Positions 56,055-62,580 of a DNA stretch of 64,000 bases are shown here, in pieces. A program made the position numbers and the translations under genes. How positions within the stretch are numbered: the stretch's first letter is position 1; each line of letters starts with the position of its first letter. The notes below the pieces were generated by a model. That model searched no databases and was not told the DNA's origin. It saw only the letters and a list, made by a program, of their open reading frames with translations. Source of the stretch: an uncultured Gammaproteobacteria bacterium (lineage in GTDB: Bacteria; Pseudomonadota; Gammaproteobacteria; JAGOUU01); NCBI GenBank assembly GCA_964353115.1, contig CAYGUI010000001.1:13417-77416 (forward strand), written 5' to 3'.

Positions 56055-56576
56055 ATGTTTAAAAATATTTATCAAAAAATAGCCGCTCTAACGCGTCATA
56101 AATATGCTGTTTGGATGCTAGTTGGGTTAAGCTTTCTAGAGTCTTGCGTTTCACCATTAACACCAATGGTTTTGTTAATTCCCATGTGTTTAGCAAGTCC
56201 AAAGAAAAGCTGGCGTTATGCAATTATTGCAACTGTAGCTGCTCTTTTTGGTTCGATACTTGGTTACTTAATTGGACATTTTTTAATTAGCTTTTTAATG
56301 CCGTTTATTGAGTCTCACGGTTATCTAAATTCTTACAATACAGCTGTTGATTGGTTTCATACTTGGGGATTGTGGGTGATGTTTCCGGCGAGTTTGATTA
56401 TTTTTCCGCCTTATAAATTTTTTACTATTGCTGCAGGCGTTGTTAGCGTTAAATTTGTACCGTTTTTATTTGTAGTTCTTGCTGCGCGTTTTGCGCACTT
56501 TGCTTTGGTTCCGCTTCTTATGATGTTTCACAAAGCTTCATGGCTGCAGAGTTGGGAAGAGAAGCATTTGGAGTAA
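56055..56576 (+). CDS. DedA/YqaA-family (VTT-domain) membrane protein
   Basis: 173 aa, 4-5 TM helices, YqaA-like hydrophobic pattern. Confidence 0.55.
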   Translation: MFKNIYQKIAALTRHKYAVWMLVGLSFLESCVSPLTPMVLLIPMCLASPKKSWRYAIIATVAALFGSILGYLIGHFLISFLMPFIESHGYLNSYNTAVDWFHTWGLWVMFPASLIIFPPYKFFTIAAGVVSVKFVPFLFVVLAARFAHFALVPLLMMFHKASWLQSWEEKHLE

Positions 56577-56657: not shown

Positions 56658-57176
56658 TCACACAGAAGCAAAAACTTCTGTGCCAGAGCCTTCCTCTCCA
56701 ACAGGCTTAAAATCCGGAGAAGCTCCCCGTACCGTAACTATATAAAAATATTTTAATAAATTCAAAGCTGCATTTAAGTCTCGCTCAAGCCAATTAGAGC
56801 AATTGGGACACTGCCAAGACCTATCTGATAACTTTAAATCATCATTTTTATTATCACAATTATGACAAATTTTACTTGAAGCAAAAAATCTATCAGCTAT
56901 TACTAATTTTCTTGCGTACCATTTGCATTTATACTCAAGCTGGCGACGAAATTCGTAAAAACCACAGTCCATAATATGGCGTGATAATCGACGATTTTTT
57001 ATCATACCTTTGACATTTAAATTTTCTATGCAGATGCCAGAAAAATTTTTTACTAGGTCAAAAGTCAACTTGTGTAATGTATCAACTCTAATGTTAGCAA
57101 TACGAGCATGCAGCTTCGCTAATTTAAGCTTAGCCTTCGCACGATTACTGCCTTTAGATTTAGTACGGCGTGATAA
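56658..57176 (-). pseudogene. tnpB: IS200/IS605-family tnpB, C-terminal 173 codons only, truncated at the IS3 insertion point
   Basis: Translation ...KLAKLHARIANIRVDTLHKLTFDLVKNFSGICIENLNVKGM...CHNCDN...CPNCSN...RDLNAALNL gives the TnpB RuvC-II, zinc-finger and RuvC-III regions. The reading frame is open up to nt 57176, the first base outside the IS3 inverted repeat. Confidence 0.75.
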
Positions 57177-57191
57177 TGATCTATCCCCAAA

Positions 57192-58022
57192 TTAATGGAC
57201 ACTACCTGCACGTTTAAAATAATTCATTTTATTCTCAAACTCAACTGGAATTTCGTAATTAATTGCTGAATGACGTCGCTCACGGTTGTAATAGACCTCA
57301 ATATATTCAAAAATACTTTTTTCTGCTTCATCTCTAGTTTTATATTTTTGATTATAAATTAATTCAACTTTTAACGTGTGAAAAAAGCTTTCTGTAACAG
57401 CATTATCCCAACAATTACCGCGGCGACTCATGCTGCAAATTAATCTAGAGTTTTTAAGCAAATTTTGATAAAAATTAGAGCAATACTGGCTTCCGCGATC
57501 AGAGTGTACAATCGTGCCCTTTGGGAACTTTCTTCTCCATAAGGCCATTTTTAGAGCACTCGCAACTAAATATTTATCAATTTTTTTGCTTAATGCCCAA
57601 CCAATTACTTGGCGTGAATATAAATCGATCATTACAGCTAAATATAACCAGCCTTCATTAGTCTGCACATAACTAATATCAGATACCCATTTTTGATTTA
57701 TCCCAGTAGTAGTAAAATCCCGATTTAAGATATTTTCAGCAACTGGTAAATTATATTTAGAATCAGTTGTTACCTTAAATTTGCGCTTATGATGCGTTTT
57801 TAAACCAAGTTTTTTCATTCTTCGATGAATTTTATTTTTATTAGCTTTAAGCTCCTTAGCTATCCTTAAACAGCCGTAACGTCGTTTATTTTTGATAAAG
57901 ATTTTTATAATTTCTTTATCAAAATTATCATTATTAATCGCTCTTAAACTTGGCTTTTTATGAAGCCAAATATAATATCCGCTACGACTTACGCTTAAAA
58001 CTTTACACTTGGTCTTTTGCAA
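57192..58022 (-). CDS. IS3-family transposase OrfB (integrase catalytic core, DDE)
   Basis: rve-domain motifs (WVSDISYV, HSDRGSQYCS) giving D, D(35)E spacing. Confidence 0.85.
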   Translation of the reverse strand: MQKTKCKVLSVSRSGYYIWLHKKPSLRAINNDNFDKEIIKIFIKNKRRYGCLRIAKELKANKNKIHRRMKKLGLKTHHKRKFKVTTDSKYNLPVAENILNRDFTTTGINQKWVSDISYVQTNEGWLYLAVMIDLYSRQVIGWALSKKIDKYLVASALKMALWRRKFPKGTIVHSDRGSQYCSNFYQNLLKNSRLICSMSRRGNCWDNAVTESFFHTLKVELIYNQKYKTRDEAEKSIFEYIEVYYNRERRHSAINYEIPVEFENKMNYFKRAGSVH

Positions 58023-58290
58023 AGTACGCTGTTGCCTTTTTTAAGATCTCACGCTCCTGCTCAGCACGAGCTAATGCTTTGGTTAATCTGCGATTTTCAG
58101 CCAATAGGGCCTCCAAATCTAGAGCCTTCGGCTTGCTTGGTTTTATAGAATATTTACCAACCCATTTATGTAAAGTAGTGGCTGGAACTCCCAAACTACG
58201 TGCTGCATCAGCGATAGATGGGCATGTTACTGCAAATTCAGCAGAAGATTTCATAAATTCTTCTGTATATACTCGTCTTTCTTTAGTCAT
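58003..58290 (-). CDS. IS3-family transposase OrfA (HTH)
   Basis: 95 aa; HTH and leucine-zipper-like C-terminus typical of IS3 OrfA. Confidence 0.85.
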   Translation of the reverse strand: MTKERRVYTEEFMKSSAEFAVTCPSIADAARSLGVPATTLHKWVGKYSIKPSKPKALDLEALLAENRRLTKALARAEQEREILKKATAYFAKDQV

Positions 58291-58602
58291 GTGAACACCT
58301 TTTTATGTTAGATAGATTTTAACATTTTTGTGTCCATTTTTTTAGGGATAGATCACTTCAAGAATGCTAAGAAAAACGTTTCCAAAAGCTATTAACAAAA
58401 TCTACTGGAAAAATATTCTTTGGTCACCAAGCTATTTTGCCGGGAGTTGCGGTGGGGCGCCATTACACATTATTAAAAGATATATTCAAAACCAAAAATC
58501 TCCACTATAATCTTTTAAAAGGTGTGCCTTATATCACCTCCCTGAAGGAAGGTGTCTTACGGCACGTATGATAAAATAATACCCATGCTCAAAAAAATCC
58601 AT

Positions 58603-60624
58603 ATGAAAAAACGTCCTATTCATTTAATTATTACTTTTACATTCATACTGTTTACATTCTTTGTTTCCTACATATTTGGATCTGATATCAGTAGCGGTAG
58701 TAAAGTTGTTCAAAATGATGGCAGCTGGGACATAAAAAAAACATTTAACACCAAAAGAATTAATAGCGCTTCAGTTTCACCTGATAACAAATATGTAATA
58801 ACATCAATAAGTACGGCAAACATAACAAAAAACAATTGGGATAATGAAGTATATTTAATTAACATCAAGAACAAAAAAACTATTAAATTAAATGTTGAAC
58901 AAGATGAGTCATTAGTTTCATATACTCCAGATCCAGACTATTTTTCATTTGTAAAAATCACCGATAAAGCAAACACTCTTTATGTGAAAGGGATAACACA
59001 AGAAGCTGCAAGGGAGGTATATACAACAAGTTATGGCGATATTGTTAACTACAAATGGTCGCCAGATTTCAAGCAAGTGGCACTCATTATTATGCCAAAA
59101 CCAGGTACTTCAAAAAAACCATATGATGCGTATAACAAAAAACTAATCATTGTAAACCTTGATAATAATAAGTCATTTACTATTGCAAAAATAAATGATT
59201 TAAAAAAATTTGATATTGATACAGTTATAGATTGGCATCCAACAAAACCGTTATTAGCCTTTGCTTTTACAAAAGACCATGCACATTATCAATTAGCCAC
59301 GATAAACACTAACACCCATGATATTAACACTTATACGCAAGAAGTAGGAATATATAAAAATCCATTCTTTTCTCATGATGGTACTTTTATCGCTTATACA
59401 TCGAATACAAATTTAGTAAAACCTGAAGAACCAGACATAAGCTATGCATCAGATTATGCAAGCTCATCCTATATTTGCTTATTAAGTATGACAAATAATA
59501 CCAGTCACTGCCTCAATTCTACTCCTGATAATGGTCCCACCATTATTGGTTGGCAAGATAACAGTGCTATTTACTTCTATGAGTTTTATCATACTACAAT
59601 TGCAGTATACAAATACGATCTAAAGCATAATAAAATTATCAGACAAAAAGTAGATGAAACAATTTTCCCCCTAATAATCACTAAAACCAGTGAAAATTTA
59701 GTGTTTGTTGCAAGCAGTTACACTAAAGCACCTGAGATCTACTATTCTGCACTTAACCCATTTAAACCGAAGCAAATTAGTCAATTCCAGACAAATACTA
59801 ATAGCGTTAGCTCTAAGACAATTTCTATAAGCTGGAAAGGTTATGGGCAACAAGAAGTTGAAGGACTGTTAACATTACCAGCTACATTTAACCCAGATAA
59901 ACCTCCTCCACTACTTATTGCTTTACATGGGGGACCTACTGGAATATGGGTTAACGACTATGTGGGAATACCTCTTTATTATGCAGGGCCTATTTGCATG
60001 ACTTGTTTAGCTGAAAACGGTATTGCTGTATTTCGCCCCAATGTACATGGAAGTATTGGCTATGGTAAAAAATTTAGATTATCCAACTACAAAAAATTAG
60101 GGATTGCTGACTATGCTGATATTATCACCGGCTTGGATTATCTCATTGCCAATAAATATGCTGATAAAAATAAATTGGCGATTTGGGGCTGGAGTTATGG
60201 TGGTTATTTAACTGCTGTAACCCTGACTAAAACAGATCGTTTTAAAGTAGGCATTGTTGGCGCTGGACCAGTTGACTTAAGAACGATAGAGTCACAATCC
60301 ACCACTTCCTACCCCATGGGATTTTATTCTGCTTATTTAGGTAGTCATTTTTGGGAAAATTTTTCCCTTTGGTCGGAACTCTCGCCTGTGAATTACGTTA
60401 CTAACATTAATACTCCCACATTAGTACAAATTGGAGAGGAGGATAAAGTCGTACCTATATCACAAGCTTATGAACTTTATTACCCACTAAAAATGCTAAA
60501 TAAAGATACAGATATGATTGTTTATTCTGGTCAAGATCATAATTTTTCTAGTCCAAAACAACTATACGATGCTACGCAAGATATGCAAAATTGGGTCTTT
60601 AAATATATTATGAAAAAACCATGA
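58603..60624 (+). CDS. S9-family serine peptidase (prolyl oligopeptidase / dipeptidyl aminopeptidase type) with N-terminal beta-propeller
   Basis: Catalytic nucleophile motif GWSYGG, downstream Asp and His (GQDHNF) in alpha/beta-hydrolase order; N-terminal signal/TM segment MKKRPIHLIITFTFILF. The ORF track starts at GTG 58552. Confidence 0.8.
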   Translation: MKKRPIHLIITFTFILFTFFVSYIFGSDISSGSKVVQNDGSWDIKKTFNTKRINSASVSPDNKYVITSISTANITKNNWDNEVYLINIKNKKTIKLNVEQDESLVSYTPDPDYFSFVKITDKANTLYVKGITQEAAREVYTTSYGDIVNYKWSPDFKQVALIIMPKPGTSKKPYDAYNKKLIIVNLDNNKSFTIAKINDLKKFDIDTVIDWHPTKPLLAFAFTKDHAHYQLATINTNTHDINTYTQEVGIYKNPFFSHDGTFIAYTSNTNLVKPEEPDISYASDYASSSYICLLSMTNNTSHCLNSTPDNGPTIIGWQDNSAIYFYEFYHTTIAVYKYDLKHNKIIRQKVDETIFPLIITKTSENLVFVASSYTKAPEIYYSALNPFKPKQISQFQTNTNSVSSKTISISWKGYGQQEVEGLLTLPATFNPDKPPPLLIALHGGPTGIWVNDYVGIPLYYAGPICMTCLAENGIAVFRPNVHGSIGYGKKFRLSNYKKLGIADYADIITGLDYLIANKYADKNKLAIWGWSYGGYLTAVTLTKTDRFKVGIVGAGPVDLRTIESQSTTSYPMGFYSAYLGSHFWENFSLWSELSPVNYVTNINTPTLVQIGEEDKVVPISQAYELYYPLKMLNKDTDMIVYSGQDHNFSSPKQLYDATQDMQNWVFKYIMKKP

Positions 60625-60710
60625 AGTACGGGTCCTGCCAGGGCCGTCCGGCCAACGTTAGAGAAAAAACTCTCTAAGGAAATCACCTGCTGCGCCTGAA
60701 GATGGTGGAG

Positions 60711-61889
60711 TGATCTATCCCCAAATTAATGGACACTACCTGCACGTTTAAAATAATTCATTTTATTCTCAAACTCAACTGGAATTTCGTAATTAATTGC
60801 TGAATGACGTCGCTCACGGTTGTAATAGACCTCAATATATTCAAAAATACTTTTTTCTGCTTCATCTCTAGTTTTATATTTTTGATTATAAATTAATTCA
60901 ACTTTTAACGTGTGAAAAAAGCTTTCTGTAACAGCATTATCCCAACAATTACCGCGGCGACTCATGCTGCAAATTAATCTAGAGTTTTTAAGCAAATTTT
61001 GATAAAAATTAGAGCAATACTGGCTTCCGCGATCAGAGTGTACAATCGTGCCCTTTGGGAACTTTCTTCTCCATAAGGCCATTTTTAGAGCACTCGCAAC
61101 TAAATATTTATCAATTTTTTTGCTTAATGCCCAACCAATTACTTGGCGTGAATATAAATCGATCATTACAGCTAAATATAACCAGCCTTCATTAGTCTGC
61201 ACATAACTAATATCAGATACCCATTTTTGATTTATCCCAGTAGTAGTAAAATCCCGATTTAAGATATTTTCAGCAACTGGTAAATTATATTTAGAATCAG
61301 TTGTTACCTTAAATTTGCGCTTATGATGCGTTTTTAAACCAAGTTTTTTCATTCTTCGATGAATTTTATTTTTATTAGCTTTAAGCTCCTTAGCTATCCT
61401 TAAACAGCCGTAACGTCGTTTATTTTTGATAAAGATTTTTATAATTTCTTTATCAAAATTATCATTATTAATCGCTCTTAAACTTGGCTTTTTATGAAGC
61501 CAAATATAATATCCGCTACGACTTACGCTTAAAACTTTACACTTGGTCTTTTGCAAAGTACGCTGTTGCCTTTTTTAAGATCTCACGCTCCTGCTCAGCA
61601 CGAGCTAATGCTTTGGTTAATCTGCGATTTTCAGCCAATAGGGCCTCCAAATCTAGAGCCTTCGGCTTGCTTGGTTTTATAGAATATTTACCAACCCATT
61701 TATGTAAAGTAGTGGCTGGAACTCCCAAACTACGTGCTGCATCAGCGATAGATGGGCATGTTACTGCAAATTCAGCAGAAGATTTCATAAATTCTTCTGT
61801 ATATACTCGTCTTTCTTTAGTCATGTGAACACCTTTTTATGTTAGATAGATTTTAACATTTTTGTGTCCATTTTTTTAGGGATAGATCA
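60711..61889 (-). mobile_element. IS3-family insertion sequence, copy 2 (1179 bp, identical to copy 1)
   Basis: Same inverted repeats and identical OrfA/OrfB translations (61537-61824 and 60726-61556). Same orientation as copy 1. Confidence 0.85.
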
Positions 61890-62040
61890 CCCCCCCGGCG
61901 CTGACGCGCCGACCCCCTTTAAGAAAGGGGGTGTGTATCTCCCTTTTTGTAAAGGGGAGCTGTCGGCAAGAAAGGGGGTGTGTATCTCCCCTTTTGTAAA
62001 GGGGAGATGTCGGCGCAGCCGACAGAGGGGTTTTTGCCGG
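61890..62040. repeat. GC-rich block of tandem hairpin repeats (~45-bp unit x2 plus flanking palindromes)
   Basis: aagaaagggggtgtgtatctccc(c)ttttgtaaaggggag(a/c)tgtcggc occurs twice. Palindromes ggcgc-tgac-gcgcc and gtcggc-gca-gccgac present. GC content far above the surrounding ~35%. Confidence 0.7.
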
Positions 62041-62041
62041 G

Positions 62042-62560
62042 TTAATACCTCTCAATCGACGCTAAAATCTCTTTCTTAGTCTCTTCAAGTCCAACCCAAT
62101 TTTCAACTTTAACCCATTTACCTTCTTCCAGGTCTTTATAATGCTCAAAGAAGTGCTTAATTTGCTTTAATAAAAGCTCAGGAGCATCTTTATAGTCTTT
62201 CATGTGATTATACATTGGACATATTTTAGATACCGGCACCGCTAAAATTTTACAGTCAACTCCAGATTCATCTGTCATTCTTAGCATACCAAGTGGACGG
62301 CAACGAATAACTGAGCCTGGAATAACAGGAAATGGAGTAATAACAAGAACATCAGTCGGATCACCATCTTCTGCTAAAGTTTGTGGAATATAGCCATAAT
62401 TGCATGGATAATGCATGCAAGTATTCATAAATCTGTCGACAAAAATAGCTCCAGTTTCTTTATCAACTTCGTATTTTATAGGATCTTGATAGGCTGGAAT
62501 TTCGATAATTACATTAATATCTTCAGGGGGATTTTTTCCTGGTTGAATTTTGGTAAACAT
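62042..62560 (-). CDS. ppa: Inorganic pyrophosphatase
   Basis: Start taken at [23 protein letters not shown] (aligns with E. coli Ppa N-terminus); DxDxD metal site present. Confidence 0.9.
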
Positions 62561-62580
62561 AGTAGAATGTCTCACTTATT

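Follow-up and report, generated by a model that had tools for sequence, protein, structure and literature searches.

In a 64,000-nucleotide (nt) stretch of DNA from an uncultured gammaproteobacterium (positions 13,417 to 77,416 of contig CAYGUI010000001.1, GenBank assembly GCA_964353115.1; hereafter the window), two copies of an insertion sequence (IS) of the IS3 family flank a gene that encodes an S9 serine peptidase. An IS-gene-IS arrangement with identical copies is easily taken for an active compound transposon with horizontally acquired cargo, and some caution is in order here. We found that both copies carry the same disabling deletion, that the footprints of insertion are missing from their junctions, and that the neighbouring transposon genes are truncated, and we therefore regard the region as a patch of decaying mobile DNA. 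In particular, we think it probable, with moderate confidence, that the locus consists of two recently inactivated, non-autonomous deletion derivatives of an IS3-family element around a resident peptidase gene, and that the pair is not a working composite transposon and did not deliver the peptidase. Put differently, a scar left by decaying mobile DNA is a likelier description of the locus than a functional transposon that imported the peptidase gene.

Both IS copies carry the same 55-nt deletion

Copy 1 (57177-58355) and copy 2 (60711-61889), both on the minus strand and therefore in direct orientation, are each 1179 bp long, and comparison of their sequences revealed that every base is identical over this length, with the identity ending exactly at the left boundaries and 1 nt beyond the right boundaries. 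No third copy or fragment of the element was found within the 64-kb window. The termini of each copy, TGATCTATCCC...GGGATAGATCA, form perfect 11-nt terminal repeats, and the terminal inverted repeats as a whole are 26 nt long, imperfect (88% complementarity) and end in 5'-TG...CA-3'. The right and left inverted repeats (IRR and IRL) lie at 57177-57202 and 58330-58355 in copy 1, and at 60711-60736 and 61864-61889 in copy 2. The outer ends of the pair are an IRR at 57177 and an IRL at 61889, and the inner ends likewise make up an IRR/IRL pair; the geometry of a composite transposon, with two complete copies of one IS around a passenger segment, is present.

On the minus strand, each copy contains the same two reading frames, orfA (95 amino acids, aa) and orfB (276 aa). 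The product of orfA (58003-58290 in copy 1, 61537-61824 in copy 2) matches the Pfam domain HTH_Tnp_1 (PF01527, 4.9e-08) and has a leucine-zipper-like, coiled-coil tail that ends in ..EREILKKATAYFAKDQV. The DDE (rve) frame orfB (57192-58040 in copy 1, 60726-61574 in copy 2) is open in copy 1 from 58040, has a TTG codon at 58022, and overlaps orfA by 20 nt (58003-58022). Its product reaches 319 bits with NF033516, the IS3 model of NCBIfam (cut-off 160), matches rve (PF00665, 1.5e-26), rve_2, rve_3 and HTH_21 in Pfam, and retains intact WVSDISY, HSDRGSQY and CWDNAVTESFF motifs, so that the D, D and E contexts are all present. A slippery heptamer, A_AAA_AAG, lies in the orfA frame at 58036-58042 (61570-61576 in copy 2); read along the minus strand from 58042 to 58036, it sits within ..EREILKKA.., and two relatives of the element (L171 and L172) keep it. 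By these ends and frames the element belongs to the IS3 family, in which it is a previously uncatalogued insertion sequence.

When the element was aligned at the DNA level with four relatives (L082, from an NCBI metagenome-assembled genome; L083, a Logan contig; L171, on a 1.5-Mb contig; and L172, a contig from the Joint Genome Institute, JGI), all four alignments placed a single clean 55-nt gap in the window IS directly after the orfA stop codon. The deletion junction, ..GTGTAAAG^TTTTAAGC.., lies at 58000-58001 in copy 1 and at 61534-61535 in copy 2, on the minus strand, and is the same in both. A KYxFIK...F.V..MC segment that is absent from the window IS is present in the proteins of all six relatives inspected, and positions 87-103 of the NF033516 profile (about 17 conserved positions) are matched here by neither orfA nor orfB. 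Restoring the missing nucleotides would give 1179 + 55 = 1234 bp, near the ~1240 bp of many single-IS contigs among the relatives.

Because 55 nt equals 18 codons plus one base, the deletion has turned a -1 relationship between the frames into a +1 relationship: relative to orfA, the relatives have orfB in the -1 frame and the window IS has it in the +1 frame. After a -1 slip on the heptamer, the frame reads GNSVLCKRPSVKF and then a stop, that is, 13 codons, for a conceptual product of 98 aa. A related protein, P0021, which NCBI annotates as a 388-aa frameshift fusion, reads ..ILKKGGSVLCSTPEVKYVFIK.. and ..EREILKKGGSVLCSTPEVKYVFIKANEPNFSVKRMCHMLSLERSGYY.., and this indicates that the -1 frame of the window IS is the ancestral fusion frame cut short. 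(In relative L082 the 388-aa slippage fusion is annotated over 1166 nt, and the gene coordinates of L083 agree with it.) With the 55-nt lesion in both copies, neither can yield the canonical OrfAB transposase, and since -1 frameshifting would lead to a 98-aa dead-end protein, the copies would be non-autonomous and, as far as their frames tell, are probably inactive. Note that the absence of orfB from the -1 frame is a consequence of the deletion, which argues that the element is a defective derivative of a family member rather than a representative of a different family.

The nearest transposases are 63-64% identical to that of the window IS; at the DNA level, the closest plasmid-borne sequences, which come from Francisella, Legionella and Piscirickettsia, are 66-68% identical. 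The exact OrfB sequence is on record from one contig only; given this, and given that the next-best protein is only 63-64% identical, no intact master copy is visible. An exact search with the 26-mer of the IS ends gave 0 matches in a genome collection and a collection of metagenome contigs, neither of which includes the host lineage. Of note, the JGI metagenome contig L172 contains, at 555-2855, two adjoining related IS3-family elements in the same orientation. Their orfA/orfB pairs lie at 555-1648, where orfB is shortened to 252 aa, and at 1693-2855, so that copies in this IS clade occur clustered and partly decayed elsewhere too.

Missing target-site duplications and truncated transposon genes

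The flanks of copy 1 read ..ATAA and CTTC.. and those of copy 2 read ..GGAG and CCCC.., so that the whole unit is bordered by ..GTGATAA on the left and by CCCCCCC.. on the right. Comparison of the four junctions in all pairings, reverse complements included, gave no match that could represent a 3- or 4-bp target-site duplication, whereas both relatives with readable flanks are bordered by 3-bp duplications (GTT/GTT for L171 and ATT/ATT for L172). The flanks of copy 2 have no other copy within the window that would mark them as a dispersed repeat. A tandem segmental duplication was also considered as the origin of the repeats and rejected, since there is no similarity between the flanks of the two copies.

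Copy 1 lies between the remains of two genes of the IS200/IS605 type. To its left, a C-terminal remnant of TnpB, an RNA-guided nuclease of the IS200/IS605/IS607 type (56658-57176, minus strand; PF07282), matches only positions 216-357 of the 360 positions of profile NF038281 (2.1e-50); about 215 N-terminal codons are gone, and the frame remains open up to the left end of the IS. To its right, a 50-aa C-terminal remnant of an IS200/IS605 Y1 transposase, TnpA (58358-58510, plus strand), recognisable in translation by ..WSPSYFAGSCGGAPLHIIKRYIQNQKSPL and ..WSPSYFAGSCGGAPLHIIKRYIQNQ, matches only positions 83-126 of the 126 positions of NF033573 (8.1e-10); about 82 N-terminal codons are gone, and the open frame starts 2 nt past the right end of the IS. 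Neither of the absent N-terminal halves was found across copy 1, and in place of complete tnpA and tnpB genes with subterminal hairpin ends we met C-terminal fragments only. One divergent IS605-type element may have lost a central stretch of about 1 kb at the position that copy 1 occupies, or two different elements may have been joined through copy 1. TnpB has its closest homologues at 55-65% identity; where their context could be read, these are of the IS607 type or are fragments.

The four junctions without 3-bp duplications, together with the position of copy 1 between truncated transposon genes, point to IS-associated deletions or rearrangements after insertion; copy 1 marks such a deletion or rearrangement junction. 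An earlier note on this DNA had already described two identical, direct IS3-family copies, the lack of a target-site duplication, and a susceptibility to homologous recombination between 1179-bp direct repeats, and all of these are borne out. Its proposals that the identity implies very recent transposition and that the unit can move as a compound transposon are not supported. The shared deletion abolishes OrfAB, and duplication, gene conversion or assembly may explain the identity. The geometry would allow movement as a unit, but we found no outer 3-bp duplication at the junctions, no functional source of transposase in either copy, and no second occurrence in the collections searched.

The peptidase gene, its surroundings and the host

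The gene between the copies (58603-60624, plus strand) encodes a 673-aa S9 (S9C-like) serine peptidase of the prolyl oligopeptidase clan SC (P0001), an assignment drawn from Pfam, alignment and predicted structure. The longest open reading frame (ORF) extends from a GTG at 58552 to 60624 and would encode 690 aa, whereas the database product starts at 58603. The protein matches the S9 peptidase domain PF00326 at 3.5e-46 and contains GWSYGG at residues 529-534. An alignment of 10 homologues shows no variation at Ser531, Asp614 and His646, which occur in the order Ser-Asp-His in a C-terminal alpha/beta-hydrolase domain. An AlphaFold model (predicted template-modelling score, pTM, 0.80) has a transmembrane helix at residues 6-25, an all-beta region at residues 50-385 and an alpha/beta C-terminal domain; the all-beta region is predicted to form the N-terminal beta-propeller-type domain expected of S9 peptidases. 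Over its full length, the model matches S9 peptidases with TM-scores of 0.76-0.80 (Foldseek), and among PDB sequences 8wt1 matches best (3.6e-27). Scores against NCBIfam equivalog models fell below the cut-off of every model (for Dpp5, 139 bits versus a cut-off of 900).

In the stretch that separates the tnpA remnant from the start of the peptidase (58511-58602), direct reading of the sequence shows an imperfect hairpin. This hairpin, CACCTCC-CTGAA-GGAAGGTG, occupies 58538-58557; it is nested in GTGCC..GGCAC and overlaps the 5' extension of the longest peptidase ORF. This hairpin is probably the end of an IS200/IS605-type element, and for this reason the true start of the peptidase more likely lies at 58585 or 58603 than at the GTG at 58552. 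(None of the three candidate starts is preceded by a convincing Shine-Dalgarno sequence.) A scan for outward promoters that might read from copy 1 toward the peptidase gave 25 sites, versus 25.5 expected from shuffled sequences. The 86-nt spacer from the peptidase stop to copy 2 (60625-60710) is relatively GC-rich and unique in the window, and folding of this spacer gave no significant structure (z -1.07).

The peptidase gene resembles its surroundings in composition. Compared with 59 ORFs of the window, its GC content is 33.2% (z -0.02), its GC content at third codon positions (GC3) is 25.1% (z +0.83), and its codon log-likelihood has a z of -1.8; GC and GC3 are native-like, and there is at most a weak deviation in codon usage. 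A search of 5.8 billion proteins yielded one homologue at 47% identity and others at no more than 32%. The 47% homologue is encoded in an IS-free chromosomal context, with minC and a gene for a metallophosphatase beside it. The host, a gammaproteobacterium rich in AT (33.4% GC), appears to be phylogenetically isolated, its best DusA relatives among GTDB species representatives and metagenomes being 53-54% identical, and with so isolated a host the rarity of the peptidase is no evidence of transfer. We infer that the gene is a resident of the chromosome. The earlier note had correctly recognised an S9 peptidase with a membrane anchor between the copies, but its statement that only the peptidase lies there needs correction, for the 50-codon TnpA remnant lies there too; its suggestion that the gene was possibly acquired horizontally is not supported by the GC and GC3 values, by the mildly atypical codon usage, or by the IS-free setting of the closest homologue.

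The IS pair and the peptidase gene belong to a 5.4-kb block, which also contains the IS200/IS605-family wreckage and an array of GC-rich hairpins, between two convergent housekeeping genes: a dedA/VTT-like gene (56055-56576, plus strand) and ppa (62042-62575, minus strand). The hairpin array (61890-62041) reaches from copy 2 to the 3' end of ppa. About 50% GC, versus a background of 33%, and unique in the window, it has a predicted fold of -77.7 kcal/mol (z -6.2), and contains two units of a 47-nt tandem repeat (61921-61967 and 61968-62014) that are 96% identical. It may be an element resembling repetitive extragenic palindromic sequences or miniature inverted-repeat transposable elements (REP/MITE-like), or a cluster of terminators. 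IS1397 and some other IS3-family elements target such palindromes.

Elsewhere the window consists of ordinary chromosome and contains leuS, lptE, holA, pcnB, folK and rimM. Two ORFs in the housekeeping region, 52694-53950 (418 aa) and 46050-46721 (223 aa), have no Pfam match at E <= 1e-5, and no Rfam family, tRNAs included, reached its gathering score across the 64 kb. The dedA/ppa/peptidase neighbourhood is conserved in none of 80 genome loci, in which the closest DusA is only 53-54% identical. Some of the housekeeping proteins appear short (LeuS, 787 aa; PcnB, 378 aa), a hint that the genome may be reduced and possibly host-associated. Francisella, Legionella, Piscirickettsia and Candidatus Bealeia, the sources of the closest relatives of the IS and TnpB, are intracellular or associated with amoebae.

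Competing explanations and comparison with known systems

If the locus is indeed a pair of deletion derivatives around a resident gene, a copy of the IS that already carried the deletion would have been duplicated recently, leaving two identical copies; alternatively, gene conversion may have homogenised neighbouring repeats 2.4 kb apart. What activity remains would be passive: through homologous recombination, the 1179-bp direct repeats would either release one IS plus the peptidase gene as a circle of 3534 bp or amplify this unit in tandem, which would make the peptidase gene prone to loss or amplification. Several observations weigh against this interpretation. The 276 codons of orfB contain no stops and its DDE motifs are intact, so that the deletion is either young or in a frame that is under selection. 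A conceptual +1 shift, or the loss of one A from the run of six, gives an uninterrupted 365-aa OrfAB-like fusion, through which the IS may retain residual activity. If the genome holds no other copies, two that lie 2.4 kb apart around a single gene do not look like random insertion and favour a coupled event. Moreover, because the nearest TnpB homologues with readable context are of the IS607 type, the tnpB and tnpA remnants may derive from two elements, and the genome beyond the 64-kb window could hold an intact master or further copies.

We weighed four other accounts against this one. The locus could be a functional, or very recently functional, compound transposon whose IS pair brought the peptidase in by horizontal transfer, and a good deal fits this account: identical direct copies bracket one gene, both have complete inverted repeats and form a proper outer IRR/IRL pair, the IS is known from one contig only, the peptidase stands apart phylogenetically (47% identity to one homologue, no more than 32% to the others) and is mildly atypical in codon usage (z -1.8), and IS3-family composites with direct copies exist, as exemplified by an IS2-like element of Burkholderia thailandensis (PMC6350997). 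We nevertheless consider it unlikely. The outer junctions read TAA and CCC, with no 3-bp duplication although relatives make one; the tnpB and tnpA fragments cut at the IS ends fit events in situ better than the arrival of a unit; the canonical transposase is destroyed in both copies; the GC and GC3 of the peptidase are native-like; and a search with the IS ends found the unit nowhere else in collections that do not cover the host lineage. An account in which a 3534-bp circle (one IS plus the peptidase segment) integrated beside or into a resident IS copy, by homologous recombination or in the manner of a translocatable unit, leaves the truncated tnpB and tnpA around copy 1 unexplained, and it predicts that the resident IS should retain its own 3-bp outer duplication, which is not there (TAA versus CCC). 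A donor or other copy was likewise not found in those collections, which lack the host lineage. Such an integration would yield direct orientation and perfect identity without a new duplication and would account for the only two known copies being neighbours, and a circle inserting beside a resident copy is documented for the IS2-like element (PMC6350997); on balance we judge it improbable.

It is very unlikely, in our estimation, that the deleted IS is autonomous through non-canonical recoding to a 365-aa OrfAB' with a shortened linker, such that the identity of the copies reflects genuine recent transposition. The +1 and the A-minus-1 conceptual products are both uninterrupted 365-aa fusions, orfB has no further lesions, and the IS3-family element IS1447 uses transcriptional slippage in both directions, at about 16% each. 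However, IS1447 requires a run of at least 7 A's (PMC6211511), whereas the window IS has six followed by G; about 17 conserved profile positions that all examined relatives keep are deleted here; and target-site duplications are absent from both copies. An assembly in which a repeat consensus was placed twice might also have produced the perfect identity, or even the pair of copies itself, for the source is a draft contig of 85,216 bp, assemblers and gap-fillers often put the same consensus in all copies of a repeat, and zero differences over 1179 bp are what would be expected. The four junctions are distinct and coherent, with reading frames that reach the IS ends, which argues for two genuine, separate insertion points, whether or not minor differences have been erased; we hold an assembly product to be distinctly unlikely.

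A highly improbable combination of these ideas is that the 55-nt-deleted IS is alive, and that its 365-aa OrfAB' moves the peptidase as a 3.5-kb IS-plus-cargo circle that re-inserts beside another copy without a duplication. If true, this would amount to a small-scale 'megacircle' of the IS2-like kind, and an orfB in the +1 frame would be a first for the IS3 family. The locus leaves the current understanding of transposition as it was, and its IS is a new member of the IS3 family, fit for cataloguing.

The peptidase shares with the S9C peptidases of solved structure (8wt1 from Geobacillus, 4hxg, an acylaminoacyl peptidase from Pyrococcus, and 5yzn from Deinococcus) the full-length fold, the Ser-Asp-His order and GWSYGG; it differs from them in being only 17-19% identical and in having an N-terminal membrane anchor. 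The IS resembles members of the IS3 family such as IS911, IS2, IS3 and IS150 in the succession of an orfA with helix-turn-helix and coiled coil and an overlapping rve/DDE orfB, in the A_AAA_AAG within ..ILKKA.., in its TG..CA termini, and in imperfect inverted repeats of about 26 nt. Unlike these elements, it has orfB in the +1 rather than the -1 frame, it is 1179 bp long versus ~1234-1240 bp in its relatives, and its copies lack a target duplication of 3-5 bp. Outside this family, pairs of ISApl1 also flank a short passenger, and ISApl1 belongs to the IS30, not the IS3, family.

Tn6330 (ISApl1-mcr-1-ISApl1; PMC5821093) likewise has two IS copies around a short, one-gene segment, and in composites of its type the IS copies can decay or be lost after mobilisation. 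Tn6330 occurs in many contexts, whereas the unit in the window has been seen once, and without a flanking duplication. The IS2-like composite transposon of B. thailandensis, which carries bcpAIOB and spans ~210 kb, is experimentally mobile in a transposase-dependent manner (PMC6350997). Its circle, the 'megacircle', consists of the left IS plus the intervening DNA and inserts beside a resident IS2-like element (PMC6350997). As in the window, an IS3-family copy lies at each end of the passenger, and the circle corresponds to the possible 3534-bp unit; the window unit differs in that both of its transposase frames are broken, its passenger is a single gene, and neither a circle nor a second site is known for it. 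In Wolbachia wBm, gene conversion is described as keeping non-functional IS copies alike (as cited in PMC3196728). The window differs in holding two copies with one shared lesion, for which gene conversion may be inferred. The two cases are nevertheless alike in that highly similar IS copies share disabling lesions within an AT-rich, apparently reduced genome.

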